A stretch of DNA of 64,000 nucleotides, from contig JAUWGP010000004.1 of NCBI GenBank assembly GCA_030606335.1, forward strand, positions 10,091 to 74,090, written 5' to 3'. Positions 11,493 through 41,845 of the stretch are shown here, in pieces. The notes beneath the pieces were generated by a model. That model saw nothing but the letters and a program-made list of their open reading frames with translations. It was not told where the DNA came from and did no database searches. Source of the stretch: a candidate division WOR-3 bacterium. Its GTDB lineage: Bacteria > Hydrothermota > UBA3073. How positions within the stretch are numbered: position 1 is the first letter of the stretch; the number at the start of each line of letters is the position of its first letter. The translations under genes and the position numbers were made by a program.

Positions 11493-11535
11493 CTATGGTG
11501 ATTTTTTTCGGCATGAGTAAGTAACCCACAGAGTC

Positions 11536-11910: not shown

Positions 11911-11939
11911 TCCTATATTCCCATATTCCCACCATCTCG

Positions 11940-12078: not shown

Positions 12079-12083
12079 AGATT

Positions 12084-13070: not shown

Positions 13071-14645
13071 ATGGAAGAAGTAGATACAGAAAAGAAGGAA
13101 AGTAAAAAAGAAATTAGCTCGTTCACTATTGATATATCCGAGATTAAGATTCCTGAGGATCTCTTAAGTCTTATACCTTCAGACTTTGCCAGAGCACGCA
13201 GGTGCTTACCAATTAAAAAAAGAGGTAGGGTACTTAATGTAGTTGTGAATGACCCATCGGATACACTACTTTTAACTGATCTCAGATTCATAACTGGTTA
13301 TGAAATCGAGCCATTTACAGCTAAACAGAAGGATTTTGATGACGCAATTACTCGTTACTATGGTGAGATTGAGAGCATTTCCTCAATTATCAGTGATTTA
13401 ACAAAAACTTCCGAACTCGAGCTTATAGAAACAGATAAAGAAGACCAGGGTGCTGAGGATTTGCTTGTCCTGGCAGAAGAAGCACCGGTTGTCCGATATG
13501 TAAATAGTCTTATCAGAGAGGCAATATTAAAGACTGCAAGTGATATACATATCGAACCCTATGAAAGTTTTATAAGGGCGAGAATTCGTATCGATGGCAA
13601 ACTACTTGAACTTCCTTCACCTCCATGGAGATTAAGGAGAGCTATATCATCAAGAGTTAAAGTGATGGCTAACCTTGACCTTGCCGAACACAGGATTCCA
13701 CAAGATGGTCGTATAATGGTTAAATATCAGGGTAGGACAGTGGATTTAAGGGTATCAACTACTCCTACTATATATGGGGAAAAGGTTGTAATGAGGATAC
13801 TCGATAAGGCAGCAGTTCCCCTTGATATGGAGAGTCTTGGAATGGATGAAACTGCATTGCAGAGATTTAAGGAGACTATAAATCTTCCCTATGGTCTCAT
13901 GCTTGTAACAGGACCAACCGGGTCTGGCAAGACCACAACCCTGTATTCTGCACTCACGCGTATTAATCGTCCAGATATAAACATTATGACAATTGAAGAC
14001 CCAGTGGAATTTGACTTTCCAGGTGTAAATCAGGTAGCCATCAGGGAGAAAATAGGTCTTACATTTGCATATGCATTGAGGTCTTTCCTACGTCAGGACC
14101 CAGATGTGATAATGGTTGGTGAGATAAGAGATAAAGAAACAGCGGATATAGCTATAAAGGCGTCTCTTACCGGTCACCTTGTCTTATCAACACTTCACAC
14201 GAATGACGCACCTTCTGCGATAACCAGATTACAGGATATGGGTCTCGAGTCCTATCTTATCTCTTCTTCTCTGGTTCTTGTCATGGCTCAGAGACTCGTT
14301 AGAAAGATATGTGAAAAGTGTAAAGAGGAAGTTGAGATTTCAATGGATATCATTGATAAAGCAGGAATTGACACATCCCTTTTCAAAAGAAATGTATTCT
14401 ATAAAGGTAAGGGATGTTCTTACTGCAATAATACAGGTTATAAGGGGAGAGAGGGTATATACGAGATAATGTATGTATCCCCTTTAATGAGGGAGATGAT
14501 AGTACAGCGTAAATCTATTGATGAGTTAAGAGAACTGGCGAAAAAAGGAGGTATGATTACACTAAGAGATGCTGCAATAGATAAATTCAAGAACGGTTTG
14601 ACAACACTCGATGAGGTTATTCGAGTAACGAAGGAGATCGAATGA
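13071..14645 (+). CDS. pilB: type IV pilus assembly ATPase PilB (GspE family)
   Basis: Walker A GPTGSGKTTT, DPDVIMVGEIRD, TGHLVLSTLHTN, and tetracysteine motif CEKC...CSYC. The N-terminus has only the alpha/beta half of T2SSE_N. Confidence 0.9.
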   Translation: MEEVDTEKKESKKEISSFTIDISEIKIPEDLLSLIPSDFARARRCLPIKKRGRVLNVVVNDPSDTLLLTDLRFITGYEIEPFTAKQKDFDDAITRYYGEIESISSIISDLTKTSELELIETDKEDQGAEDLLVLAEEAPVVRYVNSLIREAILKTASDIHIEPYESFIRARIRIDGKLLELPSPPWRLRRAISSRVKVMANLDLAEHRIPQDGRIMVKYQGRTVDLRVSTTPTIYGEKVVMRILDKAAVPLDMESLGMDETALQRFKETINLPYGLMLVTGPTGSGKTTTLYSALTRINRPDINIMTIEDPVEFDFPGVNQVAIREKIGLTFAYALRSFLRQDPDVIMVGEIRDKETADIAIKASLTGHLVLSTLHTNDAPSAITRLQDMGLESYLISSSLVLVMAQRLVRKICEKCKEEVEISMDIIDKAGIDTSLFKRNVFYKGKGCSYCNNTGYKGREGIYEIMYVSPLMREMIVQRKSIDELRELAKKGGMITLRDAAIDKFKNGLTTLDEVIRVTKEIE

Positions 14646-21819: not shown

Positions 21820-23412
21820 ATGGAGATAAGTAGGATAAAAGAGGTTTTAGCCAGACCTGTCTTTTATACCGCAGAGAAAATACTTGGACTTGATATTGGT
21901 AGTAGATTTATTAAAGTCGTTCAAGTTCAAAAAACTACCGGGGGATATAGTGTTAAGAAAGTCGGGTTGAAAGAACTTCCTCTCGACGTAATAGTTGATG
22001 GAGAGGTGATGGATGATACTACACTTGTTGATTTAATAAGTTCATTTATCAAGGAATTCCAGGCTGAGGATACTCAAGATAAGGATGTTGCACTGATTAC
22101 ATCAGGTAGGGATGTTCTTATTAAATCAGTAGAGACAGAATTTAAGGAGAGGGAAATAGAAAGAAAGAAAAAGGATATTGCAACAGCCAATATACCTTAT
22201 GATATTGAGGATGTCTGCTATGATACAATGACGTTAAAGGGAAAGCCAAATAGGGTTGTTATAGCAGCAGCCAAGAAAGATAGGATATATTCTATACTTG
22301 GTATAATTCAAGATGTAGATCTCAAGCCAGTAATTATAAGCATGGTTCCAATTGTGCTTGCTAAGCTCTTTCGTATAAACGGACTCATTCCAGATAAGGG
22401 CGACTATTTAATAGTGAGTTTATGCAGTGATAGAACTAATGTCATATCAATTAGAGATGGCGTATTCAATAATTATTTAGATGTAAGGACAGGAGTCGAT
22501 GTTTACTTGAGGAGTATTGCTAAAGAGCAGCAAATACCCGTTGATGAAGCAGTGCCGATTATTCTTGGTGAGGGTACTATAACAGAGAGGGTTGCTAAGA
22601 CATTAAACTATAATAACCGTAGTATTGTGCAGCAGGTCAAGGCTTTTATAAAGGCAGACGGTTTGAAATGTGAAGAGATAATTCTTACAGGTGAGGGTGC
22701 AACTATCCCAGGTTTGAGTGAGTCCATACAAAATGCTACCGAGGTTGTTTGCAAAATAGGTGACCCTTTTGTGGGTATGTCAACTGAAACGACCATTGAA
22801 CTACCCAATAGATACGATATAGCATTCGGTCTTGCTATTCTTGGTCTCAGAAATGAAGGTGTGAATCTTCTTCCAGTTGAAATGAGACCCAGAAAAGAAC
22901 AGAAGTTGGTTTCTCTACTCAAAGGGAGCTTTCCTTTGTGGGCAGGAGGATTAACTTTTCTTGTGCTGGCTCTAATATATATTCTAACAGCAATGAGTGT
23001 GGGTAATTATAGAACTCAAACAAAATCATTAAGGGTTCAGGAAACAACTGTGATGGAGAGAATGGCACTCCTGGATGACCTGAAAAAGAAAAGGCAGGAA
23101 ATTAGAAAGAGAATTCAGATTGTAGAGCAATTAGAAGAAGGAAAATATTCCAGGGTTAAGTTATTAGACGAATTAAACCATATATTACCTCCTTATACAT
23201 GGCTTACGTATCTAAGTGAAGAAGGAGGCGAAAGGAGCTTTGCCGTCTTGATAAAGGGGATAACTGGAAGTAATCTTGGAACATCTGAGTTTCTTAAAAG
23301 ACTCGAGGATTCCCCGCATTTTTCAGGAGTTGAATTGTCTTTTACAAAGACTAGTGAAGCCAGCGGGGTTGAAATTACCGAATTTGAGATAAGAACAATA
23401 TTTAGTGAATAG
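21820..23412 (+). CDS. pilM: PilM-PilN fusion (actin-like ATPase fold + TM + PilN domain)
   Basis: ILGLDIGSRFIKVVQV is PilM-like. VNLLPVEMRPRKE followed by TM helix LWAGGLTFLVLALIYIL and a coiled coil is PilN-like. 530 aa. Confidence 0.8.
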   Translation: MEISRIKEVLARPVFYTAEKILGLDIGSRFIKVVQVQKTTGGYSVKKVGLKELPLDVIVDGEVMDDTTLVDLISSFIKEFQAEDTQDKDVALITSGRDVLIKSVETEFKEREIERKKKDIATANIPYDIEDVCYDTMTLKGKPNRVVIAAAKKDRIYSILGIIQDVDLKPVIISMVPIVLAKLFRINGLIPDKGDYLIVSLCSDRTNVISIRDGVFNNYLDVRTGVDVYLRSIAKEQQIPVDEAVPIILGEGTITERVAKTLNYNNRSIVQQVKAFIKADGLKCEEIILTGEGATIPGLSESIQNATEVVCKIGDPFVGMSTETTIELPNRYDIAFGLAILGLRNEGVNLLPVEMRPRKEQKLVSLLKGSFPLWAGGLTFLVLALIYILTAMSVGNYRTQTKSLRVQETTVMERMALLDDLKKKRQEIRKRIQIVEQLEEGKYSRVKLLDELNHILPPYTWLTYLSEEGGERSFAVLIKGITGSNLGTSEFLKRLEDSPHFSGVELSFTKTSEASGVEITEFEIRTIFSE

Positions 23413-24144: not shown

Positions 24145-24714
24145 TTGGATGTGATGTTGAGAAATAAGATAATAGCCTCCGGTGTAATAGTGGGAATCCT
24201 CTGTCTTATCTTTTTCACCATAATTTATCCGTCAAAACGGAAGACATTTTTGAATCTTAAAGGAGAATATACAGAACTCGATAGAACAATGAGTATAGCA
24301 AGAGAAAATTTGAAACAATACAGCAGGTTAGAGAGAGAGTACGATTCCCTTATTACGACATGGAGGAGGATTGAGCTGCTTCTGCCTGAAGAGAGGGAGA
24401 TACCGAATCTTCTTGAAGATATTGCCAGGGTTGCAAAACGGTGTGGAGTGGTTGTTAGTGAATTCAAACCCCTGGGCCCTATTCCGCATGGTTTCTCTAC
24501 TGAAATCCCTATTAGTTTCAAATTACGCAGTAGTTACCACCAATTCGGAAAATTCCTATCAGAGATTTCGCGGCTTCCAAGATTGCTAAAGGTGGGACAA
24601 TTGAATATAAAACCGTTAAGAGAAAAAGATTCGGAGATAATTACTCTACAGGCAGATTTTATTGTTTCCGCATATACTGTAGCAAAAGAAATTTCGCAAG
24701 CGGGGGGAAAATGA
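24145..24714 (+). CDS. pilO: type IV pilus biogenesis protein PilO
   Basis: N-terminal TM, coiled coil, IPNLLEDIARVAKRCGV and FGKFLSEISRLPRLLKV. TTG 24145 lies 5 nt after AGGAG (alternative ATG 24154). Confidence 0.75.
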   Translation: MDVMLRNKIIASGVIVGILCLIFFTIIYPSKRKTFLNLKGEYTELDRTMSIARENLKQYSRLEREYDSLITTWRRIELLLPEEREIPNLLEDIARVAKRCGVVVSEFKPLGPIPHGFSTEIPISFKLRSSYHQFGKFLSEISRLPRLLKVGQLNIKPLREKDSEIITLQADFIVSAYTVAKEISQAGGK

Positions 24715-25481
24715 ACAAGTTTTTTGGAGCATTAGTATGTTTGTGGCTTTTCCTTCTTAATGGACAAGCATTCCCTGCAACTATAAACGACATAGCTGTT
24801 TCTATAACTGACACGTGCACTGTAATCTCCGTCATTACTGATGCAGCAGCCTACAAGGAGGTGCACGTTCCTCCTCCACCAAGAATTGTTGTAGATTTTT
24901 CTCAATCAGAGTATAGTGCAGATAAACTAAGAATTGATGTCAATAAAGGGAATCTCATAGCTGTTAGGATAGGTCAATACAAACCTGATGTAACAAGAGT
25001 GGTTCTGGATTTAAAAAAAGAAATGGCTTATACTATAAAGAAAACGGATAAAGGCTTTGATATTCTGCTTAAAGCAGGTGTATTACCTGAGGTTGGGAAG
25101 GAAGAGAAAAAGGAAATCGTAGAGCCGGAAGTAATAGAAGAGAAGGAGCAGAAAAAGATTATCGAAAGTCCGCAGGTACCGGAGATCTTTACGTATTCAA
25201 CAAGAGGAAGAAGAGATCCCTTTAAACCACTTGTTGGTTTAGCCTCTGAGGAGGATACACTTCTTGACATAAGGGGTGCGCAGGTTGTAGGAATTGTATG
25301 GAGTCCTCAGGAAAGATATGCCCTTATTCAGGCAGAAGATGGGGAGGTATTCATTGTTGAAGAGGGTGACAGAATAAGAAACGGAAAGGTAAGCAAGGTA
25401 GATAAGAAGAGTGTAGACTTTACTCTTTGGGAACTTGGAAGAACGGAGAGATTAACCCTTAGAATTATAGAAAAGGAGTAG
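24711..25481 (+). CDS. pilP: AMIN domain - K/E linker - PilP-like domain protein
   Basis: Signal peptide. AMIN-like IAVSITDTCTVISVI...PRIVVDF...VRIGQYKPDVTRVVLDL. PilP-like RRDPFKPLV...GIVWSPQERYALIQAEDGEVFIVEEGDRI. Confidence 0.7.
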   Translation: MNKFFGALVCLWLFLLNGQAFPATINDIAVSITDTCTVISVITDAAAYKEVHVPPPPRIVVDFSQSEYSADKLRIDVNKGNLIAVRIGQYKPDVTRVVLDLKKEMAYTIKKTDKGFDILLKAGVLPEVGKEEKKEIVEPEVIEEKEQKKIIESPQVPEIFTYSTRGRRDPFKPLVGLASEEDTLLDIRGAQVVGIVWSPQERYALIQAEDGEVFIVEEGDRIRNGKVSKVDKKSVDFTLWELGRTERLTLRIIEKE

Positions 25482-25483
25482 AA

Positions 25484-26677
25484 ATGAAAAGGTTGGTAGC
25501 TTCTTTACTCCTATCCCTTATCATATCTTTTTCATTGTATGCTGAGAGGGATAGACCCGTAACCCTGAAGTTTAAAAATGCTGATATAAGAACAGTTATA
25601 CAGGCATTTGCAGAGCTTGGTGATGTAAACATTGTAATATCTGAGAATGTAAGAGGAACAATATCCTTGAGTCTGAAAGATGTATCATGGGAAGATGCAT
25701 TCAAAACAGTACTACAGGTTCATGGTCTTGGAGCTGTTGAGCAGGAGGAAATGATTGGTGTAATGACTATGGTTGAGTTTGAAGAAAGAAGAAAGATGGT
25801 GGACCTTGAAACGCATGTCTTCAGGATAAGGTATGCTGATGCACGTGATATAATGGGCGTAGTAAGAGCTATGATGTCTGATAGGGGTGGTATAAATGTT
25901 GATACCAGAACAAACTCGTTAATAGTAACGGATATTCCGAGCAATATACCCAAACTTACAGCCTTGTTAGATACTATTGATAGTCCAACACCACAGGTAA
26001 TGATTCAGGCAAAGATAGTAGAAATTGATTATAAAACAGCGAGGGAGACAGGTATAAGGTGGTTTATAGGAGACCTGGATGATCCAACCAGAGACACCCA
26101 TATGGGAGGGGCATTAGATGCTCGTGGAGAAGCTCCATTTACCTTTACATTTGGGACGTTGCGAGCAGGCATAGATATAGATGCATTCATCGGACTATTA
26201 GAATCGAAGGATCAGGCGAGGATTCTATCAGAACCAAGTATTGCTGTAGCCGATAATGAGGAGGCGATGATTCTCTCTGGGAAAAAGGTTCCAGTAATTA
26301 CATTGGATATGGCAGGAAACAAAATAATTAGATTCTATGATGTGGCTCTCAAGTTTACTGTTAGGCCACATATAAATCCCAATAATGAAATTGTGCTTGA
26401 GCTCCATCCTGAGGTGAGTGACCTTTCAAGTGAGGCAACTGTTGAAGGTGGGATTATAATACTTTCGAACGAAATTAAAACGAAATTGAGAGTCTTAGAT
26501 GGAGAGACAGCAGTAATTGGTGGTGTTATAAGAGAGAGGGAGAGTAAAGTTGAAAAAGGTATTCCATTTTTGTCCAGCATTCCACTTCTTGGGCGTCTCT
26601 TTAAATACAGCAGTATAAGCAAGGACAGGGTCGAAATTATGATATTTGTAACACCCAGGATAATACAAACTCGATAA
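25484..26677 (+). CDS. pilQ: type IV pilus secretin PilQ (short form, no AMIN domain)
   Basis: N0-like VTLKFKNADIRTVIQAFAELGDVNIVIS, NSLIVTD, and secretin core ILSEPSIAVADNEEAMILSG...IPFLSSIPLLGRLFK...EIMIFVTPRI. Confidence 0.85.
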   Translation: MKRLVASLLLSLIISFSLYAERDRPVTLKFKNADIRTVIQAFAELGDVNIVISENVRGTISLSLKDVSWEDAFKTVLQVHGLGAVEQEEMIGVMTMVEFEERRKMVDLETHVFRIRYADARDIMGVVRAMMSDRGGINVDTRTNSLIVTDIPSNIPKLTALLDTIDSPTPQVMIQAKIVEIDYKTARETGIRWFIGDLDDPTRDTHMGGALDARGEAPFTFTFGTLRAGIDIDAFIGLLESKDQARILSEPSIAVADNEEAMILSGKKVPVITLDMAGNKIIRFYDVALKFTVRPHINPNNEIVLELHPEVSDLSSEATVEGGIIILSNEIKTKLRVLDGETAVIGGVIRERESKVEKGIPFLSSIPLLGRLFKYSSISKDRVEIMIFVTPRIIQTR

Positions 26678-26711
26678 ATCTTAATAATTAAAGAACTGAA
26701 ATAATTAACTT

Positions 26712-27110
26712 ATGCATGAAAAAATTATAATATCAAGAAAAAACGGATTTAGTCTGGTCTCAGTTATGGTAGCTTCTCTTATACTTGGGATTGGTATTGT
26801 TTCCCTAATGAGAATATTTACTGTTAATCCCTTTGTAAACGCTACTACAGATAGATTATCTCAGGCAACTAACTATGCACAGGACAAGATTGAGGAATTA
26901 AGGGCACTCGGATACATCAGTCTGGTGGATACAATAAATGCAGGATATACAACAGAAACAGACAGCATTGGACATATTGTAAGAAGATACATCCTTTCTG
27001 TTAATACGGTTAGTACTGTACAAGTAGATGTAAGGTGTTACTGGCAGGCACTACCCATAGGAGTAGTGGACACAGTAAGACTTATAACTCTCGTTTCCGG
27101 CCATGACTAG
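26712..27110 (+). CDS. minor (pseudo)pilin, PilV-like; Glu5 replaced by Ser
   Basis: KNGFSLVSVMVASLILGIGIV. Confidence 0.65.
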   Translation: MHEKIIISRKNGFSLVSVMVASLILGIGIVSLMRIFTVNPFVNATTDRLSQATNYAQDKIEELRALGYISLVDTINAGYTTETDSIGHIVRRYILSVNTVSTVQVDVRCYWQALPIGVVDTVRLITLVSGHD

Positions 27111-27198
27111 CAGGAATATAAGAGGATAAGAAATGTTAAATATCAAGAGGGTTTATTTCCGAGAATTAATCACAAGGTGTAATAAGGATATTAAAAAA

Positions 27199-27282
27199 TG
27201 AGATTGCCGCGTCCGTCAAACGACGGACTCGCAATGACCTTTTTCACTGTCATTGCGAACCGTAGGTGAAGCAATCGCTTTG
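27199..27282. repeat. family-A repeats (2 units)
   Basis: gagattgccgcgtccgtcaaacgacggactcgcaatgac and gtcattgcgaaccgtaggtgaagcaatcgc. Confidence 0.8.
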
Positions 27283-27329
27283 TTTGTTATCATAAAGGTT
27301 TGGGATATTCTCTAATTTTTTGATGTTAT

Positions 27330-27866
27330 ATGGGTTTTATAAATAATAACAGAGGTACTACATTAGTCGAGGTATTATTAGTAGCTGCGATAGGTGCCGT
27401 TATCGCTATTGTTGTGGTTGCGGTCCATATCAGTCAGGAAAGAATTTATGTGGGTGAAGATACCCTTATAAGGATGTTTCGAAATACAACGAGTGCAATG
27501 CTAAATATGACCAAGGTTCTGAGAATGGCAGGTTACAATCCTACTGAAAGTTCTATATTTGATAATTCTGTCAGTTACGGAGGTAGCGATAGCATTGAAG
27601 TGGTTATTGATTACAATGGAAACGGGGCACTGGATGGTTTGAATGAGATTGTAACATATTCGCTTAACGACTTTGCACCATGGGGTATTGATTCATTAGC
27701 ATTTGTATATCTAAATCGTAGGCATGATACACTCCCTCGACCTGTTCTTTCTGACAGTTTGCAATCTATAAACTCTATTCTGGTCACTGTTGTAATGAGA
27801 AGGGATAATAATGTTGCAGGACCTGAAAGATATGAGTTAGCACGAGAAATAAAGATGCGAAATTAA
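27330..27866 (+). CDS. minor pilin, PilW-like
   Basis: NNRGTTLVEVLLVAAIGAVIAIV prepilin-type N-terminus. Confidence 0.65.
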   Translation: MGFINNNRGTTLVEVLLVAAIGAVIAIVVVAVHISQERIYVGEDTLIRMFRNTTSAMLNMTKVLRMAGYNPTESSIFDNSVSYGGSDSIEVVIDYNGNGALDGLNEIVTYSLNDFAPWGIDSLAFVYLNRRHDTLPRPVLSDSLQSINSILVTVVMRRDNNVAGPERYELAREIKMRN

Positions 27867-27870
27867 AGAG

Positions 27871-28090
27871 GAGGTTGCCACGCTCATTTCATTCGCTCGC
27901 AATGACAGATTCGGGATAGAGATTGCCACGCTCATTTCATTCGCTCGCAATGACAGATTCGGGATAGAGATTGCCACGCTCATTTCATTCGCTCGCAATG
28001 ACAACTTTTTGGAGTACCCGACTGCCCAGCAAGCAGGTTTAATCTTTTATATTTAATTTTTGATTTTTAATATATTTTTGTGGGGGTTTT
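27871..28090. repeat. 3 x 48-bp tandem family-A array followed by a composite module that ends at the next ATG
   Basis: Unit gagattgccacgctcatttcattcgctcgcaatgacagattcgggata at 27871, 27919 and 27967 (the last is truncated). Then ggagtacccgactgcccagcaagcaggtttaatc plus an AT-rich tail. Confidence 0.9.
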
Positions 28091-28534
28091 ATGTTGAGAA
28101 ATGAAGAGGGAATGTCTATAGTAATGGTTTTCGGGATTATGGTTATACTCGGAATACTTGCATCTGCCCTCATCGTTAGAACCCTTGGTGAAAGACAGAT
28201 TACCACCTATATTAAGAGAAGTGAAACTGCATTTAATGCTGCAGAGGCGTGCCTTGACCTTGCAATATCTAAATTACACACGGAAACAAGCGCCATACCT
28301 GCGCCACCCGATACATGGGCAGCTCTTCCCAATAATGCATTGTACAAGACAGGACTCCCGGATTCTTTACCAGAGGAAATAAGCATCGAGGATATGTATA
28401 CACCACCACTTTGGAGTGCAGAATTGGTAAATATTATTTATGAAGTAAGGACATCAGGAAAGGAAAGAGATATAACACGTTCACTTGAAGCAGGTGTAAG
28501 AATAGGTCCCGTACCATTTATAACTCAACATTAA
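28091..28534 (+). CDS. PilX-like minor pilin
   Basis: EEGMSIVMVFGIMVILGILASALIV is a PilX_N-like N-terminus. Confidence 0.6.
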   Translation: MLRNEEGMSIVMVFGIMVILGILASALIVRTLGERQITTYIKRSETAFNAAEACLDLAISKLHTETSAIPAPPDTWAALPNNALYKTGLPDSLPEEISIEDMYTPPLWSAELVNIIYEVRTSGKERDITRSLEAGVRIGPVPFITQH

Positions 28535-28617
28535 AAATTTTTGGTTGTATATAACCTTTAATAAAATAATTATACAGTTTGAGATGTGAAAAGTGTAGAT
28601 TCGAAAAGGGAGGAGAA

Positions 28618-28989
28618 ATGGACATAAAGAAAGTGAATGCTGCTTTAAAAATCCTTAAGGATAACCTGGAAGATGCTCTCATTGCAACAGATATATATGG
28701 CTCTATGGATGGTCAATCTATAGCAGGTTATAATTCACAACCTAAGGCTGCAGCACTCTTCAATCGGGTTACAGGATTTCTTGTTGGTTTGTTAGAAGAG
28801 GGTGAGTTTCCAGAAATTGGCAGGTATTACATTTTAGACCTTGTTGATGGAAAAATATTGATAGTCATTCCACTTGGTGAATTTCAGTGGATAGTACTGG
28901 CCGACGGAAAGAAGGTTCAACTTGGACTTCTTTTAAATGTCTTTATACCCAAAATTGTTGATGCCTTTGAAGAAGCGATAGCAAGCTAA
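28618..28989 (+). CDS. Roadblock/LC7 (MglB-like) domain protein, paralog of the C-terminus of the 29238-30923 product
   Basis: LEDALIATDIYGSMDGQSIAGYN...IGRYYILDLVDGKILIVIPLGEFQW...QLGLLLNVFIPKIVDAF aligns residue-by-residue with LGDALITAVIYSSADGKSAASYN...IGRYYIVDLVDEKMLIVIPLGEYQW...QLGLLLNVVVPKIVAAF. ATG 28618 follows GGGAGGAG. Confidence 0.65.
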   Translation: MDIKKVNAALKILKDNLEDALIATDIYGSMDGQSIAGYNSQPKAAALFNRVTGFLVGLLEEGEFPEIGRYYILDLVDGKILIVIPLGEFQWIVLADGKKVQLGLLLNVFIPKIVDAFEEAIAS

Positions 28990-28995
28990 AGAGGT

Positions 28996-29199
28996 ATGAT
29001 GGGAGAAAAGTTAAAGGAAATATATAAAGTAACGACAAAAAAGGCGGGTTTTATAGGAAGAATGAAACTTGCAGAAAAAACAGGAATACCTTCGGTTAAG
29101 GCAGCCGAGAGTGAAGATTCAGATGAAGTTATCAAAAAGTTTAAAGAGGCTGCAACCGAGATAATCGGAAAGAATATAGATGAATTTTTAGAAAAGTAG
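28996..29199 (+). CDS. small K/E-rich helical protein (67 aa), hypothetical
   Basis: ATG lies 5 nt after AGAGG, wedged between the Roadblock gene and the REC gene. No family recognised. Confidence 0.45.
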   Translation: MMGEKLKEIYKVTTKKAGFIGRMKLAEKTGIPSVKAAESEDSDEVIKKFKEAATEIIGKNIDEFLEK

Positions 29200-29237
29200 A
29201 ACGGAAAGTATAATCTCAAAAATTTTTAAACGGAGGT

Positions 29238-30923
29238 ATGGTGAGGATTTTAATAGTTGATGATGATGCTGATTTAGCAGAAATCCTTTCTACAGCATTT
29301 ACCACACAGGGATATGATGTAGATATGGCATTTTCCGGAAAAGAAGGACTTGATAAATTGCTTGAAGAGGATTATGATTGTGTTGTTCTGGATGTGGTTA
29401 TGCCTGAAATGGATGGATTAGAGGTAATGAGGAAGATAAGGGCATCCAGACTCGATGTATGGGTTCCAGTAATATTGATTACAGGTAAAAATGTAATTGA
29501 GGATGAGAGGCGTGTTTTTTCCCTTGGAGCAGTTGATTATATTAAAAAACCATTTGAATTTGATGAACTATTAAAGAGAGTCAATTTGAGTGCGGAGAGA
29601 GGAAAGATATTAAGGAGGTTTCAGGGAAAGAAGAAGTTTTCAGGAAAGATCGATTTATTATTAATTCAACATATAATTGGGTTTATTTCAATAGGACAGC
29701 TTTCAGGTATGCTTCAGGTTACAAATGTGGATATGGAGGGAGTACTGTTTTTTATAAATGGTAATCTTGCAAATATTAGGTTAGAAGAACAAGTAGGAAT
29801 GAAAAATTTCGATGAAATTATGGAATGGAAGGATGGAATTTATTCATTTGTGGAATGGGAAACTGGGTTAGAGATGACCATAGAAACATTAAAGGATATG
29901 TTATTTTTTACAGAACTTGAGGAAGGAAGTTATATTTTGAGATGCGAAAGTGGGGGTAAAAAAGGAGAAATTCATATTAAAGGTGGGAATATTGTTTATG
30001 TAGAGGGTAACGGACTTAGAGGAGAAGATGCTTTGAAAGATATTCTAACATGGAGGAAGGGTACTCTTAATATTGAAAAAACAGATAGACTGAAAAAGGG
30101 GGTGAAACTTAAGAAATCTATTAGTGAAATTTTACTTGAGACATCACGATTTAAGATTAAAGAGAGTAAACCAGAAGAATTGAAAAAAGAGGAAGAGGAG
30201 AAAAAGATTGAAGAGAAGGTAAAAGCTGAGAAAAAGGAAGAGAAAAAAAAGGAGGCGAAGGAGAAGGTGGAAGAGGAGGAAGGGAGAAGAGGGAAGAGAG
30301 AAGAGGGAAGAGAGAAGAAGGTGGAAGAGAAAATAAAAGAGGAGAAAAAGATTGAAGGAAAGAAGGAAGATATAAAGGAGAAGGTAAAAATAGAGGTAAG
30401 GGTAAGAAAGGAGGAAGAAGAGATAAAAGAAGAGGTTAAAGGTAAGGAAAAGGAGGGGATTAAAATGGAGGAGAAGAAAAGAATAGAAGAGGAGGAAGAA
30501 AGAAGAGGGAAGAGAGAAGAGGGAAGAGAGAAGAAGGTGGAAGAAAAGATAAAAATAGATGTAGAAAAATTGAATAGTGTTATCGAGGACATGAAAAAAG
30601 ACCTTGGAGATGCCCTCATTACAGCGGTTATATATAGTTCTGCAGATGGGAAATCTGCAGCAAGTTACAATGAAAAGTCTAAGACATCTGCTATTTTCAA
30701 TCAAGCTACCAGGTATCTTTTTAATGCATTAAAGGATAGTGAATTCTCAAGTATTGGAAGGTATTACATTGTGGATCTTGTGGATGAAAAAATGTTAATA
30801 GTCATACCACTTGGTGAGTATCAATGGGGAATGTTAATAGACCGTGAGAAGGCTCAACTTGGACTTCTTTTAAATGTAGTTGTTCCCAAAATAGTCGCTG
30901 CCTTTAAAGATGCAGTAGCATAA
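29238..30923 (+). CDS. response-regulator receiver - 2 x DUF4388-like - ~140-aa E/K/R-rich segment - Roadblock/LC7-like domain
   Basis: REC: ILIVDDD, VVLDVVMPEMDG, ILITGK, AVDYIKKPF. DUF4388-like: LSGMLQV...GVLFFINGNLANI...EIMEWKDGIYSF and GEIHIKGGNIVYVEG...GEDALKDILTWRKGTLNIE. Followed by a KEEEEKK... tract and a C-terminal Roadblock-like domain. Confidence 0.75.
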   Translation: MVRILIVDDDADLAEILSTAFTTQGYDVDMAFSGKEGLDKLLEEDYDCVVLDVVMPEMDGLEVMRKIRASRLDVWVPVILITGKNVIEDERRVFSLGAVDYIKKPFEFDELLKRVNLSAERGKILRRFQGKKKFSGKIDLLLIQHIIGFISIGQLSGMLQVTNVDMEGVLFFINGNLANIRLEEQVGMKNFDEIMEWKDGIYSFVEWETGLEMTIETLKDMLFFTELEEGSYILRCESGGKKGEIHIKGGNIVYVEGNGLRGEDALKDILTWRKGTLNIEKTDRLKKGVKLKKSISEILLETSRFKIKESKPEELKKEEEEKKIEEKVKAEKKEEKKKEAKEKVEEEEGRRGKREEGREKKVEEKIKEEKKIEGKKEDIKEKVKIEVRVRKEEEEIKEEVKGKEKEGIKMEEKKRIEEEEERRGKREEGREKKVEEKIKIDVEKLNSVIEDMKKDLGDALITAVIYSSADGKSAASYNEKSKTSAIFNQATRYLFNALKDSEFSSIGRYYIVDLVDEKMLIVIPLGEYQWGMLIDREKAQLGLLLNVVVPKIVAAFKDAVA

Positions 30924-31084
30924 GATAGTCTTGCGAATACCGACCCGTATACGCTATACAACACACCTTGTCACTTAAATTAAAACAGATTCAGGTAGAA
31001 TTTTCTGATAATTAAAAGAATAAAACTCTTCTACAGATATTGGAGAGGAGTATATAGCATTTAATAATAATTTAGGAGGTTAAA

Positions 31085-31741
31085 ATGAGAATAGTTAAAT
31101 ATATATCCACTGCAATATTTGTCTTTTTACCCATTATTGCTATGTCTGAAGATATAGCAGTACCGAGCGATGTGGGAACTGAGGTTTTAATGGAGACGAC
31201 TTACAAAACCGGTAAAGATATTACAACAAAGGGTAAAATGATACTAATGAAACAGGGTAATAGGGTAAGAATAGAAAAACTTGTTGAGATTGAAGGCAAG
31301 GAAAGACTCACAGGTGTTTCAATATATGATGGTCAAACAACCTGGGAAATATCACCGATGGGAACACACAAAAGCGATGACCCAATGAGTTATCCATGGA
31401 ATTGTCCACAGTGTGCTGAATTAAAATCAAAGACAGGATATCTTGAAGGAAGAGAGGTTAATATTATTGAAACAGTGGGAGCAAAGATATACATAGATGC
31501 TGAGAGGAATGTAATTCTTCTTGAGGAGAGAGAAGGTGAGAATATTTATTATAGAGACTATTTGATTGTAGGGGATTTAGGATATATACCATCAGTTATA
31601 GAGAGGATAAGTAGACAGGGTAAACTTCTGGAAAAAACGGAATTAATAAACGTAGATAAGATGAAGGTGTTACCCAGTTCAACCTTCGACCCGGATGAGG
31701 TAGAAATAGAATTTCCCGAGGAAATAAAAATACTTAACTAA
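31085..31741 (+). CDS. secreted LolA-like / outer-membrane lipoprotein-sorting-like protein (tentative)
   Basis: Signal peptide, TKGKMILMKQGNRVRIE...SIYDGQTTWEISP...KIYIDAERNVILLEE pattern. Family assignment is weak. Confidence 0.4.
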   Translation: MRIVKYISTAIFVFLPIIAMSEDIAVPSDVGTEVLMETTYKTGKDITTKGKMILMKQGNRVRIEKLVEIEGKERLTGVSIYDGQTTWEISPMGTHKSDDPMSYPWNCPQCAELKSKTGYLEGREVNIIETVGAKIYIDAERNVILLEEREGENIYYRDYLIVGDLGYIPSVIERISRQGKLLEKTELINVDKMKVLPSSTFDPDEVEIEFPEEIKILN

Positions 31742-31803
31742 AGGTGTTTTGAGGTTAATATCTGAGCAATCAGCTATTAATGAATATTATACCAGGAGGG
31801 TAT

Positions 31804-34500
31804 ATGAAAAGGTTAATATGTTTTATTATATTACTTATACTGCCTGTTGCAGTACTTACTGATGACGAGGTCTTTTTTATGCTCTGGATGGATCCATGTA
31901 TTATGATTATACTTGACTCGTCAGGCAGTATGACCTGGGATATGGCAGGAAATGCAACCTGTGGGGATGGAAGTATTGTCTATCAGGGAAGGGATACAAA
32001 TTTAGATGGATTTGCTGATGACAGCAGGCTCTATATCGTGAAGAGAGCACTTCGGGATATAACAACTGAAAATACCCAATTCCAATTTGGCCTTATGACT
32101 TATGGTCAGGATTATGAATGGACTAATCTGTATAGTTACGGTGGAGGAAATTATGCGAACTGGTACTGGCCGTATTACTGTAGTGGATGTACCTGGAACT
32201 GGTATCCACCATACAAGTACCAGTACGGTTATTATACGGCATACATGTGGTGGTGGGGTATGACCTGGCCCACAAGTTATCCTGATTATGCACATTATCC
32301 ACTCAGAGTCCCGGTTAGTCCCCATACTCCTGCACACAGAGATTCAATCTTAGCCTGGATAGATAATGATTGTGGTTACCCATCCATTGAGGATGGAGAC
32401 CATGAGATAAGGGCATGCGGAAGTACACCTATTGGTGGTTCTCTTTATTGGGTAAGAGAATATTATAGATTAGAATATATACCTAACGATCCTGCCAGAA
32501 ATTGCCGTAGATATTTTGTTTTGCTTGTCTCAGATGGTGAAGAGCAGGAATGGACACTTAACCCCTATACTTGGGCTTCAAATCTGAGAAGTACTAAAGT
32601 TTTTGAAACAACTCATGATATTCAGACCTTTGCCCTTGGTATAGGAGAGAATATGTCGGGTTCTCCTATGCTTGATTCCCTTGCTAAATTAGGAGGCACT
32701 CAACGTGCTCACTTTGCTACGACTCCCGAAGCCCTTGATACTGCCTTTGCTGCTATCCTGGGAGATGTATACGAGAGGTCTTTCTCATTCAGTGCACCTG
32801 AGGTTCCCGCAGTGCGTGTAAAACAGCAGGATAAACTCTATATGGGCTCTTTTTTGCCATCATATGATATATTTTGGAAGGGTTACCTTAAATGCTACCA
32901 GCTTAACCCAGATGGTTCTCTTCCCGTTGATTCGCAGGGTGTTCCTCTTAATCTACCGCTCTGGGAGGCGGGAAAAAGGCTTCAGTCTACATCAAGTAAC
33001 TCAAGAAATATATATACTGAGGTAAATGGTTCACTTGTTCCCTTTATTCCTGCATTTATAGATAGCACGATGCTTGGAGTGCCAGGTAACGATGTTACTA
33101 ATTTGATAAACTGGGTAAGAGGTGATAATGGTATGAATTGGAAACTTGGCGATATTTTTCACTCCGAACCTCTTGGAATTATGAATCCAAACCCATTTTA
33201 CAACGAGGAGGGTTACAACGAGTTTAAGGTTACATACGAAAACAGAGATAGAATAATACTTGCAGGCGCGAATGACGGTATGCTCCATGCCTTCGATGCT
33301 GGAATATACAGTGCAGGAACTGATTCATTTAGTGATGGCTCCGGCGATGAGTTATGGGCATTCATACCCCATAATTTACTATCCAAATTGAAGAATATGC
33401 GAAACAGTCATCAATATATGGTTGATGGCTCACCAGGCGCTGCAGGTGTGTGGATACCTTCAGGTCCATTAGATATCACAAAGGATGCAGATGAGTGGAA
33501 GACCATTCTTGTATGCGGGGAAAGGTCTGGTGGGAATCACTATTTCTCACTCGACATCACTGATACCCACAGTCCATCATATATGTGGGAATTTACAGAT
33601 ACTGAACTCAGTGAGACCTGGTCAGGACCATTGATAAGAAAGGTAAGAGTACCGAGGGATAAATGGGTTACAGTGTTTGGTGGTGGATTTCACCCAGATA
33701 ACGAAAAGGGTAGGGCATTATATATCTTGGATATTAGCGACGGTAATATAGTCTTTAAATTTGATAGTACTGTCAATGCAAACATACAATACTGTTTCCC
33801 ATCAAGACCGATAGGCATTGACCTGTCACCGATAGACAAGTTTATGGATAGGATTTATATAGGAGATGTTAGTGGGCAGATGTGGAGATTCAATGTATCT
33901 GATACAAGTGTATCATCCTGGTCGAGTCAAGTTATATTTGCAAGTGAACCGATTGCTCCAAGAGTTACACCCATATTCTATCCTCCCTCCCTCTCTTATG
34001 ACGAAGAGGGTAACCTCTGGGTCTTCTTTGGTACGGGAGATAGGGAAGATCCGAGGAATGTAGATAGTTTTGAAAGGTTTTACGGGATAATAGATAGAGG
34101 AGTACTTCTCAGGGAATCAGATCTTGCTGAGATAACACATGGAGGAAATCCACCCTCAGATGATGGTTGGTTTATTAAGTTAGAGAGAGGGGAAAAGGTT
34201 CTTGCAGGTTCTGCAGTTATATCTGGCACGGTTTACTTCACGACATATAAGTGTATAGATACAGATGACCCATGTGAGATTCAGGGTTTAGCAAGATTAT
34301 ATAAAGTAGACTTCCTGGAAGGAACGGTTACATTTGAAACTATAGGAACATCACTACCAACTACTCCCCAAATAACTATATCTCCCGAGGGATATCTTAC
34401 GATAATGATAACGCTTGCTGAAGGAAAGATATTTACTGAGGTTATGGAACTACCTGCTTCATTTAAGGAAACAATATACTGGAAAGAGATAAGACCTTAG
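31804..34500 (+). CDS. pilY1: PilY1-like pilus tip adhesin with N-terminal vWA (MIDAS) domain and C-terminal beta-propeller
   Basis: MIDAS motif IMIILDSSGSMTW, CGSTPIGGSL, LVSDGEE. PilY1 signatures ILAGANDGMLHAFDA...GDELWAFIPHNLL and IYIGDVSGQMWRF. ATG 31804 follows AGGAGGG. Confidence 0.85.
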   Translation: MKRLICFIILLILPVAVLTDDEVFFMLWMDPCIMIILDSSGSMTWDMAGNATCGDGSIVYQGRDTNLDGFADDSRLYIVKRALRDITTENTQFQFGLMTYGQDYEWTNLYSYGGGNYANWYWPYYCSGCTWNWYPPYKYQYGYYTAYMWWWGMTWPTSYPDYAHYPLRVPVSPHTPAHRDSILAWIDNDCGYPSIEDGDHEIRACGSTPIGGSLYWVREYYRLEYIPNDPARNCRRYFVLLVSDGEEQEWTLNPYTWASNLRSTKVFETTHDIQTFALGIGENMSGSPMLDSLAKLGGTQRAHFATTPEALDTAFAAILGDVYERSFSFSAPEVPAVRVKQQDKLYMGSFLPSYDIFWKGYLKCYQLNPDGSLPVDSQGVPLNLPLWEAGKRLQSTSSNSRNIYTEVNGSLVPFIPAFIDSTMLGVPGNDVTNLINWVRGDNGMNWKLGDIFHSEPLGIMNPNPFYNEEGYNEFKVTYENRDRIILAGANDGMLHAFDAGIYSAGTDSFSDGSGDELWAFIPHNLLSKLKNMRNSHQYMVDGSPGAAGVWIPSGPLDITKDADEWKTILVCGERSGGNHYFSLDITDTHSPSYMWEFTDTELSETWSGPLIRKVRVPRDKWVTVFGGGFHPDNEKGRALYILDISDGNIVFKFDSTVNANIQYCFPSRPIGIDLSPIDKFMDRIYIGDVSGQMWRFNVSDTSVSSWSSQVIFASEPIAPRVTPIFYPPSLSYDEEGNLWVFFGTGDREDPRNVDSFERFYGIIDRGVLLRESDLAEITHGGNPPSDDGWFIKLERGEKVLAGSAVISGTVYFTTYKCIDTDDPCEIQGLARLYKVDFLEGTVTFETIGTSLPTTPQITISPEGYLTIMITLAEGKIFTEVMELPASFKETIYWKEIRP

Positions 34501-34680
34501 TAACCAATATACTTGAAAGTAAACACCAAAAGTAGGAAAAGATTATATAGAATTGCACGAGTTATCGCTTCCATAGTGGTATACCTTTCTACAGGAAATT
34601 CGTGCTTGCAATTGCTACAAACAACCCTCGAATAAAACTTTCTGTCTTGCCATTCATGTTTGCTGAAATATCCTCAGTTT

Positions 34681-35372
34681 TTTTGGAGTACCCCGCCAAG
34701 GCGGGGCACTCCTTAGTGTTAAAAATGAGATTGCCGCGCTCCTGTTGTTCGCTCGCAATGACAGATAACGACTAAAGATGGTAGCCTGCGAATAAAAGAA
34801 AACAGGAAATTGTCATTGCGAGTAGTCCGTCGGTTGACGGACGACGAAGCAATCTCATCTCTCAGCATTCTATGGAGTGTATTATGGAGTGCATTAACCG
34901 TGTTAATGCACCACTGTGACCCCATATAGAGTATTCCTCTACAGGGTAAACACGGTCACAGCACTCCAAAAGGGCATTGCTGTTACCCTATAGAGTAATC
35001 CTATACAGGGTAAATACGGTCATTGAAATTTTTGGAGTACATCGACCATGTCGATGTAAGCAATAACAAGGAAATGAATGAGATTGCCGCGCTCCCATTG
35101 GTCGCTCGCAATGACAGGTAACGACTAAAAATGGTAGCCGCAGGCTTTAGCCTGCGAATAACAGAAAACAGGTAATTGTCATTGCGAGGAGTCCGTCGGT
35201 TGACGGACGATGAAGCAATCTCATCTCTCAGCATTCTATGGAGTGACAGTCTTTAGACTGTTAAAAAGGCGTTAAGGATGAGATTGCCGCGCTCCCGTTG
35301 GTCGCTCGCAATGACAGCTAAAGGAATAAGATTGCGACGTCCCGATTATCATCGGGACTCACAATGACAGAC
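34681..35372. repeat. ~700-bp mosaic palindromic repeat cluster (families A-E)
   Basis: ggagtaccccgccaaggcggggcactcc, several gagattgccgcgctc...cgctcgcaatgaca units, gtcattgcgag...gaagcaatctcatctctcagcattctatggagtg, ctgtgaccccat...ggtcacag, gtagccgcaggctttagcctgcg, and gacagtctttagactgt. Confidence 0.9.
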
Positions 35373-35415
35373 AACCATAATTGTCATTTTTTAATTTTAT
35401 CCCGGGGGTGATACT

Positions 35416-37122
35416 ATGAATGGATGTTTTCTTTTAATATTACTCTTTCTTCCAATTTTTTCTGTTTACCCCTTAGAATGGGTCCAGACAGACTGGTCTG
35501 GGGGAGGTGGTGAATTCTATTGGGGTGATTCCACAAAATACTACAGCAGCACACTTAATGGGTGGAGAAATCCAGGAATTCTTACCCTTGATACACCTTC
35601 TGATAAATGGGAGGTTATGGGTGACCCGGATGGGGCTAAAAATATCTGGGTACTGCTTGAATTTGTGGGGAATATATATGCGGGTGTTGACAACTATCCG
35701 ACTACAGGAACAGGTAGAGTGCTATTTTCAAACGACAATGGACATAACTGGACAGCAGGTGGAGCTCTTGGTTCTTCTAATTTTGTACACGCTCTACTTG
35801 AATACAATGACGTAATATATGCAGGTACAGATGGGAATGTATATAAATCCTCTGATGCTGGAACAACGTGGACACAAACTGGGAGTCTCTCGGGTGTAAC
35901 AAGGGTTGATGCTCTTGCCTTAAGGAATGATACCATCTTTGCAGGAACAGGGACAGGTGGTGATGTATTCAAATCAGGTAATTGCATGAATTGGACCAAC
36001 ACAGGAGAGCTCACAGATGCAACAATAATATGGGATTTACTTGTGGGTTTTGATGGAACAATGTATGCTGCTGGAACAAAGAATAATACATCATCCTGTA
36101 TATTCAGGTCCACTGATGGCGGTGGAACATGGGTGGATCTTGGCTTCTCCCATGATGTGGTCTGTTATGCACTTGCTCAGGCAGCAGATTCTACCATATA
36201 TGCTGGGATAGGAGTAGATAGTGGATATGTATATAAATCTACAGATGGAGGAGACACCTGGATTGTGACATCTGATCTGGGAAGTGGACTTTCAAAGGCG
36301 AATATTGTTTATAGTATAATTATAGCAGATGATGGTAGTATATATGCAGGCACTCTTGCAGGTACAGGAGCAGGGAGGGTATTTAAATCTAAAGATGGAG
36401 GAAATAGTTGGTCTGGTATATCTCTTGGTAATGCCCATATTTATTCACTGCTTCAATCAGATGAGGGTTTTATCTACGCAGGACAGGATAGAATAATGAC
36501 AAATCCAATTTCAAGGACCGCATATGATTCAACAGGTTATCTTAACTCATCAGTGTACGATACAGAGATTGATACGGTGAAATATGGGATAATTCACTGG
36601 GATGCAGACCTACATGGGTGTAACATTACTGTGGGTGTACAGGCAGATACGAGCAATTGGTTTTGGCCAGAACCTGAGACAATTGAGGTTATGAATAACA
36701 CCCAGCTGCCAGAGGCGTTAAACGATAAACGATATGTGCGGTATATATTTGAGGTATACAGTTCCTCTGCTGATTCCTCACCTGTAATTGATGAGATTAG
36801 TATAGGTTATTCACCAGGAGGTTCAGGCATAGGAGTGGATGAGTTTAGTGATATATACCTGTATACACCAGTTCCCAATCCATTTACCCATTCAACGACC
36901 ATCAGGTATATCAATCCCAGAAGTGAACCGCTTTCTATAGATGTTTACGATATCTGCGGAAGGCTCATACGAAATCTTATTAATGGTTTTGATAGAGAAG
37001 GATGTATTAAGTGGAAGGGACAGGATAAATTGGGACGGAGATTGCCTCCAGGGGTTTATTTCGTGAGATTAGATATAGAAGAGAGAAGTATTGGTAAAAA
37101 GGTGATTTTTCTTGGGCAATGA
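35416..37122 (+). CDS. secreted BNR/Asp-box (sialidase/Ycf48-like) beta-propeller protein with T9SS-type C-terminal domain
   Basis: Asp-box repeats SNDNGHNWT, SSDAGTTWT, STDGGGTWV, STDGGDTWI, SKDGGNSWS. C-terminus NPFTHSTTIRY...IDVYDICGRLI...GVYFVRLDIEERSIGKKVIFL. Confidence 0.8.
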   Translation: MNGCFLLILLFLPIFSVYPLEWVQTDWSGGGGEFYWGDSTKYYSSTLNGWRNPGILTLDTPSDKWEVMGDPDGAKNIWVLLEFVGNIYAGVDNYPTTGTGRVLFSNDNGHNWTAGGALGSSNFVHALLEYNDVIYAGTDGNVYKSSDAGTTWTQTGSLSGVTRVDALALRNDTIFAGTGTGGDVFKSGNCMNWTNTGELTDATIIWDLLVGFDGTMYAAGTKNNTSSCIFRSTDGGGTWVDLGFSHDVVCYALAQAADSTIYAGIGVDSGYVYKSTDGGDTWIVTSDLGSGLSKANIVYSIIIADDGSIYAGTLAGTGAGRVFKSKDGGNSWSGISLGNAHIYSLLQSDEGFIYAGQDRIMTNPISRTAYDSTGYLNSSVYDTEIDTVKYGIIHWDADLHGCNITVGVQADTSNWFWPEPETIEVMNNTQLPEALNDKRYVRYIFEVYSSSADSSPVIDEISIGYSPGGSGIGVDEFSDIYLYTPVPNPFTHSTTIRYINPRSEPLSIDVYDICGRLIRNLINGFDREGCIKWKGQDKLGRRLPPGVYFVRLDIEERSIGKKVIFLGQ

Positions 37123-41491: not shown

Positions 41492-41492
41492 C

Positions 41493-41828: not shown

Positions 41829-41845
41829 AGTAACACCTATTGTAG

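Follow-up and report, generated by a model that had tools for sequence, protein, structure and literature searches.

A receiver-PATAN-Roadblock response regulator with a free Roadblock-like paralog and a small conserved partner in a type IV pilus cluster of a WOR-3 bacterium

We have analyzed a cassette of three genes in a 64-kb stretch of contig JAUWGP010000004.1, from a candidate division WOR-3 bacterium (hereafter the window, to which all coordinates refer unless a locus is named). The three genes lie on the same strand, with gaps of 7 and 39 bp, within the block of minor-pilin genes and pilY1 of a type IVa pilus (T4aP) cluster. The first (28618..28989, plus strand) encodes a 123-aa protein of a divergent and unannotated Roadblock/LC7 subfamily, which we have named RoblX. 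The middle gene, s67 (28996..29199, plus strand), encodes a conserved 67-aa protein, predicted to have three helices, that follows RoblX-encoding genes directly in many phyla. The third (29238..30923, plus strand) encodes a 561-aa response regulator made of a receiver (REC), two PATAN domains, a tract rich in glutamate and lysine (E/K tract), and a second RoblX domain. The novelty lies in the RoblX subfamily, which is invisible to sequence profiles, in its near-constant partner s67, and in the version of the module found in this WOR-3 lineage, with a double PATAN, an E/K spacer, a free paralog, and an insertion between minor pilins and pilY1. We consider it quite possible, if not quite probable, that the cassette is a phosphorylation-switched adaptor tying the type IV pilus (T4P) motor to a regulatory module of Roadblock dimers.

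RoblX, the response regulator, and s67

The fold of RoblX was revealed by structure prediction and by no other method. We modeled the domain with AlphaFold 2 (AF2) on an alignment of 56 sequences (A1), in which the C-terminal domain of the regulator is one row. The model has a mean pLDDT of 93.9 and an alpha-beta-beta-alpha-beta-beta-beta-alpha topology (helices at residues 3-20, 42-61, and 102-122; strands at 21-28, 34-38, 71-74, 79-85, and 89-96). Of the Foldseek matches in the PDB, 150 reach E<=0.001, and the top ones are MglB of Myxococcus xanthus (6izw_C and chains of 6hjm; TM 0.79-0.83, root mean square deviation ~2.1 A, E ~5e-7). The next matches listed are Asgard Roadblocks, Thermus MglB, LAMTOR subunits, and the C-terminal domains of Rag proteins. 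According to the model, then, RoblX has the Roadblock/LC7 fold, as a preliminary description of this DNA had guessed from the sequence. Profile searches are blank. Free RoblX has no match in Pfam at E<=1 or in NCBIfam, the C-terminal domain has none in Pfam at E<=1, and Robl_LC7 (PF03259) at 1e-3 matches 0 of 72 RoblX fusion proteins. A PDB sequence profile search with RoblX gave nothing relevant, and the comparison of A1 with a canonical Robl_LC7 protein by hhalign gave a probability of 0.1. The assignment to the Roadblock superfamily rests on the fold and on the gene context because sequence profiles find no match. Surveys of MglB-like regulators must therefore under-count these proteins, since Pfam and NCBIfam miss both RoblX and s67.

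The start of the free RoblX gene needed correction. The open reading frame (ORF) called mechanically begins at a TTG at 28579, and the homologs begin with MDIKK or MNVKK. Since these starts and a Shine-Dalgarno sequence (GGGAGGAG), 4 nt ahead of the ATG at 28618, point to the same position, we place the start there, which gives a protein of 123 aa. Shine-Dalgarno sequences precede all three cassette genes. A promoter and terminator scan of 26000-35500 found no terminator-like sites between the cassette genes; its counts are at chance level and it was otherwise uninformative.

The preliminary description had divided the 561-aa protein into a receiver, two DUF4388-like segments, a charged tract, and a C-terminal domain paralogous to the 123-aa product. 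These four parts were all recovered, with profile matches for Response_reg and DUF4388; the Robl_LC7 match that was also sought did not appear at E<=1 in Pfam. The receiver (residues 4-116; 29247..29585) matches Pfam Response_reg with an E value of 1.1e-29. It has the residues expected of a CheY-like domain, i.e., the acidic pocket (D8 and D9), the phospho-acceptor Asp (D52, the residue singled out earlier in VVLDVVMP), the conserved Thr/Ser (T82), and the Lys (K104), and is intact. It is followed by two tandem PATAN/DUF4388 copies (29631..30170), found as two stretches by Pfam DUF4388 (E 1.5e-13) and placed at residues 132-217 and 212-311 by a custom PATAN hidden Markov model (HMM; E 2.7e-09 and 1.4e-14). 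The two copies are barely alike (17% identity, E 0.059), and such a double PATAN is found in only 8 of 106 proteins with PATAN and RoblX. The C-terminal RoblX domain (residues 440-561; 30555..30923) was recognized by its similarity to free RoblX. These 122 residues align with the 123-aa protein without gaps, at 55% identity and 76% positives (E 3e-44), which is far beyond chance. Both copies have the segment GRYYI(L/V)DL, which the AF2 model places at strand beta3. Roadblock proteins form homo- or heterodimers through the edge beta-strand and helix alpha2, and this shared segment, like the recurrence of paired paralogs (see below), is suggestive of such dimers. Three WOR-3 proteins (P0090-P0092) are near-identical to the 561-aa regulator.

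The tract between the PATAN and RoblX domains was identified by composition (residues 306-439; 30153..30554). Its 134 residues are 37% E, 31% K, and 8% R (76% E/K/R together), with 15% hydrophobic residues, a net charge of +2, and pairs of opposite charge at 39 of 130 i/i+4 positions. This composition fits a single alpha-helix (SAH), and the tract is a candidate spacer of that type. It holds an internal duplication of 144 nt (81% identity, copies 216 nt apart), and its length differs among proteins that are 95-97% identical (556, 560, and 561 aa), which together suggest that the repeats are still expanding and contracting. The length is unusual for the family: by HMM boundaries, the linker is 128 aa here versus a family median of 34.5 aa, and the other long linkers are acidic or S/T/P-rich, not E/K. 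At the DNA level, the purine-rich coding strand of the tract has the highest GC and AT skew of the window (0.41 and 0.24 in 30001-32000).

The third part of the cassette, s67, was passed over in the preliminary description. It is a real conserved gene and the most constant partner of RoblX. Searches with tblastn found homologs in 22 of the 52 loci examined, usually 10-30 bp past the last RoblX-encoding gene, and two further loci (L048 and L049) have one as well. These loci belong to WOR-3, Aminicenantes, Acidobacteriota, Desulfobacterota, metagenome-assembled genomes labeled Clostridia, and Methanobacterium. The homologs have 64-67 aa and are publicly annotated as hypothetical proteins; identity to the s67 of the window is 36-58% among 20 aligned copies, and the mean column identity of the alignment (A3) is 53%. 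We found no match to s67 in Pfam or NCBIfam, and its PDB sequence matches are noise. The AF2 model predicts three helices (pLDDT 93.8). By Foldseek, this model comes closest to the N-terminal helical subdomain of H-NOX, a weak match (E 0.07, TMq 0.68, 26% identity, with 0 of 78 matches at E 0.001) that we take as a lead only. Two other identities were considered and rejected. The 20 homologs have no match to DUF742 in Pfam even at E<=10, and a helix-turn-helix protein finds no Pfam support (the best matches are HTH_IclR, with 2 of 20 homologs at E 0.063, and DUF2683, with 1 of 20 at 0.0075).

Architectures and gene neighborhoods of RoblX

How common is this subfamily, and what accompanies it? 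We found 89 RoblX homologs, and an exhaustive search of 1.84 billion representatives with the RoblX HMM gave only 476 clusters (50% identity) at E<=1e-3. About half of the matches listed are stand-alone RoblX proteins of ~123 aa. The fusions listed have 240-605 aa and nearly all of them carry RoblX at the C terminus. DUF4388/PATAN is present in 59 of the 72 long RoblX proteins, together with REC in 32, and the same set includes one fusion to chemotaxis (MCP) signaling and one to tetratricopeptide repeats (TPR). The typical relative, common in metagenomes, is a REC-PATAN-linker-RoblX protein of 360-430 aa. Because fusions recur so often, we suggest on Rosetta-stone grounds that PATAN and RoblX act together; these fusions predict one shared complex. 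Besides the window, six loci have paired RoblX paralogs (L017, L022, L026, L027, L031, and L050), a recurrence that would fit the formation of RoblX heterodimers. In L050 (8535-9173), a stand-alone RoblX precedes a second one with a K/R/E-rich C-terminal tail, and charged tracts attached to RoblX are thus not specific to the window. Relatives of 190-214 aa were considered as fusions of RoblX with s67 and rejected, since they are fragments of REC-PATAN-RoblX genes or RoblX proteins with K/E/R-rich tails. A metagenomic protein (P0333, 554 aa) has RoblX fused to a methyl-accepting chemotaxis signaling domain.

We examined 52 loci in total, the locus search using a 12-sequence RoblX alignment; 44 GTDB loci were searched for pil genes by tblastn. 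The commonest arrangement consists of a histidine kinase, a sigma54 NtrC-type response regulator, REC-PATAN-RoblX, and s67. It often continues with genes for a weakly V4R-like 173-aa protein (p173), a 206-aa protein (p206), a class-V aminotransferase, and a 135-aa protein. An example is L001 at 11497-12650, where s67 is followed by these four genes, as also in L011, L016, L024, L026, and L029. The V4R match of p173 is weak and sub-threshold (16.8 versus 31 bits), and neither p173 nor p206 is encoded in the window. This succession of genes and the weak H-NOX-like match of s67 may be a sign that the module has a ligand-binding branch. The gene order also differs: the window has RoblX, s67, and the fusion, in contrast to the fusion, sometimes a free RoblX, and then s67 elsewhere.

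An MglB-type regulator is expected to be encoded with, and to act on, an MglA-like small GTPase. Such a GTPase gene is lacking in the window and present in L015, L021, L025, L033, L051, L052, and 13 actinobacterial loci. In L015 (Thermodesulfobacteriota), the genes encode REC-DUF4388-Robl_LC7, DUF4388-Robl_LC7, an MglA-like GTPase, DUF4388-RoblX, s67, and REC-DUF4388, and the first of these passes the Pfam cut-off for Robl_LC7 (23.5 versus 23 bits). Methanobacterium (L021/L025) has a GTPase, Robl_LC7, RoblX, s67, a weak DUF4388 protein, and Robl_LC7. The 13 loci of Actinomycetota have a P-loop GTPase ~0.6-1.5 kb upstream of RoblX, and the one read in detail (L039) encodes a GTPase, a Roadblock-like 188-aa protein, and RoblX. 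In L033, the gene just downstream of RoblX is a longer ORF that includes an MglA-like domain. L051 (8001-11389) and L052 (8001-11421) encode RoblX, a Roadblock-like 132-aa protein, a protein of 354-359 aa without assignment, a Robl_LC7/MAPKK1_Int protein, an Arf/Ras-like GTPase, and a Roadblock-like protein. Finally, L048 and L049 have a Robl_LC7 (MglB-like) gene and a true MglA homolog (E 6e-51 to PDB MglA) 7-10 kb from the module. Because small GTPases accompany it in several distant lineages, we place RoblX among the GTPase-associated Roadblocks.

The association with pilus genes is narrower. The whole pil-embedded arrangement recurs only in L004 (WOR-3 JAGMCL01), which is 92-99% identical and belongs to the same species-level lineage. 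In another WOR-3 genome (L019), PATAN-RoblX and s67 lie beside tuf and ribosomal protein genes. In the Desulfobacterota-like L049, a gene for an 836-aa PilB-like ATPase (MshEN+T2SSE) directly follows s67. The adjacency of the cassette to pil genes is therefore real and specific to one lineage, and conservation of the triplet with pil genes, which the preliminary description had made a test of its proposal, passes weakly: the triplet lies next to pil genes only in L004, L049 has the PilB-like ATPase gene beside s67, and tblastn with the pil proteins of the window found nothing in the other 43 GTDB loci.

The same description had doubted that this architecture was known at all, which is too strong. 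Its kind is already known, because publications already associate PATAN with Roadblock and small GTPase and REC-DUF4388-Robl_LC7 fusions detectable with Pfam exist, as in L015; REC-PATAN-RoblX proteins are, moreover, common in metagenomes. We found no description of the RoblX subfamily, of s67, or of the fusion of this lineage in the searchable literature, a comparison that leaves out Makarova et al. 2006, which is reportedly the source behind the PATAN-MglA/MglB neighborhoods.

Possible roles of the cassette

The proposed adaptor could work as follows. A histidine kinase would phosphorylate D52; in most relatives, the adjacent kinase would also feed the sigma54 NtrC-type regulator. Phosphorylation would gate the PATAN domains, which, by analogy with cyanobacterial PatA-type regulators, could bind PilB at its N-terminal MshEN region, PilC at its N-terminal domain, or both. 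At the other end of the protein, the C-terminal RoblX would dimerize with itself or with the free paralog, as Roadblock domains do, with s67 as a presumed accessory subunit. The resulting platform may localize or regulate the motor and, to judge from the relatives, would most probably also dock an MglA-like small GTPase whose gene lies in another part of the genome. At 0.15 nm per residue, the 134 residues of the E/K tract could hold the motor-binding end and the platform up to ~20 nm apart as a stiff spacer. The link with the pilus motor is favored by the place of the cassette within a T4aP cluster and by the PilB-like ATPase gene that follows s67 in L049.

Such an adaptor would bring together features of two known systems. 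PATAN is an output domain that binds the N-terminal half of PilB1, as does that of PixE in Synechocystis, and the N-terminal domain of PilC (bioRxiv 10.1101/2021.06.11.447907). This binding sets the direction of pilus activity in PatA-type regulators, and MglA/MglB homologs are “regularly encoded” near PATAN proteins (PMC4316618; bioRxiv 10.1101/2021.06.11.447907). In M. xanthus, a receiver protein and two Roadblock paralogs form the RomR/MglC/MglB complex (PMC10329633). Like the cyanobacterial PixG, PixE, LsiR, and PatA, the 561-aa protein combines REC with PATAN/DUF4388 and has a genomic link to T4P genes. Unlike them, it has REC first (4-116) and PATAN after it (132-311), a duplicated PATAN, an added spacer and Roadblock, and no adjoining chemosensory operon of the Tax/Che type. 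We do not class it as PatA-type because the order of PATAN and REC is reversed, although its PATAN domains may still work alike. The cassette shares with the MglA/MglB/MglC/RomR module of M. xanthus the predicted Roadblock fold, two Roadblock paralogs, a receiver protein with a long non-globular linker, a link (putative here) to T4P polarity, and relatives of its Roadblock beside MglA-like GTPases. It differs in having the receiver and one Roadblock in a single polypeptide with PATAN domains between them, in the lack of detectable sequence similarity of RoblX to MglB or Robl_LC7, and in the absence of mglA from the window. We know of no counterpart of s67 in the Myxococcus module. By analogy, the 561-aa protein may work like a merger of a PatA-type regulator with MglB/MglC-RomR; it is a member of neither, because of the reversed order, the missing Robl_LC7 profile match, and the absence of an adjacent mglA.

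Other systems offer partial parallels. The published PATAN/MglA-MglB neighborhoods (PMC4316618) resemble L015, L021, and L048/L049, where PATAN, Roadblock, and small GTPase genes also come together, and differ from the cassette, which has a covalent fusion, a Roadblock subfamily that profiles miss, and the partner s67. The Ragulator/LAMTOR-Rag system shares the fold (LAMTOR and Rag C-terminal domains are among the matches) and the gene set of L051/L052, with one GTPase among three or four Roadblock-like proteins. The likeness goes no further than fold and gene set, the RoblX systems being prokaryotic and unrelated in sequence, with no membrane anchor subunit in evidence. The conservons of Streptomyces consist of a kinase (CvnA), a Roadblock (CvnB), a DUF742 protein (CvnC), and a GTPase (CvnD). 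The RoblX module resembles them in its histidine kinase, its Roadblock, a small protein without known function right after the Roadblock gene, and, in relatives, its GTPase, which in actinobacteria lies at ~0.6-1.5 kb from RoblX, upstream of it. Unlike conservons, it has an s67 without DUF742 match, another gene order, and PATAN and REC fused to the Roadblock, and the window has no GTPase.

Several observations weigh against the adaptor. Binding of PATAN to PilB or PilC is known only for cyanobacterial proteins of the opposite order (PATAN and then REC), so that its extension to the cassette is by analogy. The dimerization of RoblX, the binding of s67, and the helicity of the E/K tract are predictions. 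The 64-kb window encodes no small Ras-like GTPase by tblastn, phmmer, or Pfam, only Der/EngA (45427-46638), and no complete histidine kinase. The pil genes searched by tblastn (PilB, PilT, PilC, PilM/N, PilO, PilP, PilQ, PilD, PilY1, and pilins) were found in none of the other 43 GTDB loci, L019 included; hence, a pilus role may be specific to this lineage, or the adjacency may be incidental. The practical value of the proposal is also limited, since the host is uncultured, the adjacency to pil genes is lineage-specific, and the mechanism goes beyond the domain content only by conjecture. A scan of GTDB genomes with an MglA alignment gave mostly Desulfobacterota and related genomes and no WOR-3, although WOR-3 may still have mglA.

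The module may have a wider meaning. RoblX and s67 could be an ancient and unrecognized two-protein core, present in at least 8 bacterial phyla and in Methanobacterium, that couples polarity modules of Roadblock and small GTPase to PATAN effectors. The WOR-3 lineage would have fused a RomR-like receiver, a PixE-like PATAN, and an MglB/MglC-like Roadblock within a pilus operon. We hold this broader view to be doubtful, if attractive. If it were true, the fusion would be a natural Rosetta stone for a single complex in which PATAN proteins and Roadblock dimers act physically together on the T4P motor, perhaps with no GTPase. In any case, the RoblX fusions bear on the connection of PATAN/MglA-MglB to the T4P motor, which is unsettled beyond a few model organisms, the link between PATAN and MglB being so far one of gene neighborhood.

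Whether a GTPase is involved separates the adaptor from the alternative that survives best. RoblX could merely dimerize and form a scaffold independent of GTPases. The regulator would then be bivalent, with four PATAN domains per dimer and no small GTPase in this organism, and the free RoblX could cap it or compete through heterodimers with one PATAN arm, thus tuning motor binding. The lack of a small GTPase in the window fits this alternative, as do most REC-PATAN-RoblX loci (histidine kinase, sigma54 regulator, fusion, and s67), which have no GTPase within 10 kb. The second PATAN/Roadblock-like/DUF8082-like operon of the window (see below) likewise lacks the GTPase that goes with DUF8082 in L048/L049. 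However, genes for stand-alone RoblX have GTPase genes as close neighbors in several distant lineages, L048 and L049 have MglA/MglB on the same contig, and the GTPase gene may be elsewhere in the genome. We judge a scaffold of this kind rather unlikely.

It is less likely still that the cassette is a general two-component module unrelated to pili, inserted between minor pilins and pilY1 without functional meaning. The cassette is indeed portable, with neighbors that vary from pairs of histidine kinase and sigma54 regulator to V4R-like and aminotransferase genes and, in L019, ribosomal genes, and of the 44 GTDB loci, tblastn found pil genes in none outside the lineage of the window. Against an incidental insertion, it shares the strand of the pilus genes and their tight spacing, uninterrupted by terminator-like sites, and the arrangement is kept in the near-identical L004. 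A PilB-like ATPase gene lies directly after s67 in L049, the link between PATAN and PilB/PilC is documented, and the same window has a second PATAN gene and two extra genes with MshEN domains. The position of the fusion points to the pilus machine as a target.

Very improbable, finally, is a small-molecule or gas sensor of RoblX and s67, with s67 as an H-NOX/V4R-like piece complemented in relatives by the V4R-like p173 and p206 and the metabolite reported to the receiver/PATAN output: the H-NOX subdomain is the closest fold to the s67 model and the p173 and p206 genes often follow s67 in relatives, but the fold match concerns a three-helix protein and is weak, the V4R match is sub-threshold, p173 and p206 are missing from the window, and Roadblock domains are not, to our knowledge, ligand sensors.

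Pilus genes and other features of the window

A full T4aP cluster lies on the strand of the cassette, with PilB, PilT, PilC, pilin, PilD, PilM-N, PilO, PilP, and PilQ. In order, it encodes two single-domain REC proteins, PilB (with MshEN), PilT, PilC, pilin, PilD, TPR and MshEN proteins, a PilM-N fusion, PilO, AMIN-PilP, PilQ, three minor-pilin-like proteins, the cassette, a 218-aa protein, and PilY1. The location between minor pilins and pilY1, given in the preliminary description, is thereby borne out. The three minor-pilin-like genes directly upstream of the cassette (26712..28534, plus strand) include two that pass the N_methyl cut-off of 21.2 bits (23.0 and 21.3 bits), and there is weak similarity to PilX_N. 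The PilY1-like beta-propeller protein downstream (31780..34500, plus strand) matches T4P_PilY1 (E 7.1e-14) and has weak similarity to the model of the Neisseria PilC tip adhesin. The gene that separates the regulator from pilY1 (31085..31741, plus strand), for a 218-aa protein with a signal-peptide-like N terminus, has no Pfam or NCBIfam match, and tblastn over the GTDB loci found a homolog only in L004, of the same lineage.

PilB, with its N-terminal MshEN (13071..14645, plus strand; T2SSE 1e-140, MshEN 4e-20), is the putative docking target of PATAN in the adaptor model. The cluster contains two additional MshEN genes, one for a stand-alone 163-aa protein (19451-19942) and one for a 411-aa protein that joins MshEN to a DnaA-type AAA+ ATPase domain (20498-21733; Bac_DnaA E 9e-56). 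Both have sub-threshold matches to an MshE-related motif that binds cyclic di-GMP (26.8 and 30.1 bits versus a cut-off of 38 bits). The window thus offers three MshEN-bearing candidates for PATAN targets: PilB, the 163-aa protein, and the MshEN-AAA+ protein. Within the same cluster, PilM and PilN are fused in a single protein of 530 aa (21820-23412), and PilP has an N-terminal AMIN domain (24711-25481).

A second operon of the PATAN/Roadblock type lies 10 kb downstream of the cassette, on the minus strand (41252-42481). One of its products, of 211 aa, matches DUF4388 (E 1.7e-17), and another, of 111 aa, resembles Robl_LC7 weakly (E 0.049). A third, of 79 aa, is similar to the C-terminal half of a DUF8082 protein (39% identity over 64 aa, E 3e-13) that is encoded in L048/L049 in an operon of Robl_LC7, MglA, a gene X, and DUF8082. 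The operon of the window has no GTPase.

Two large secreted proteins of the window (1675-4380 and 35416-37122) carry Por_Secre_tail, the sorting domain of the type IX secretion system, and one of them is encoded less than 1 kb downstream of pilY1. Adjoining the second PATAN operon, the minus-strand region 38595-40750 encodes an odd pair of sensor-like character, consisting of a 238-aa sCache/HAMP protein without kinase or output domain, and, from the next gene, which the first overlaps by 4 nt, a fusion of a periplasmic-binding-protein domain with a TonB C-terminal domain.

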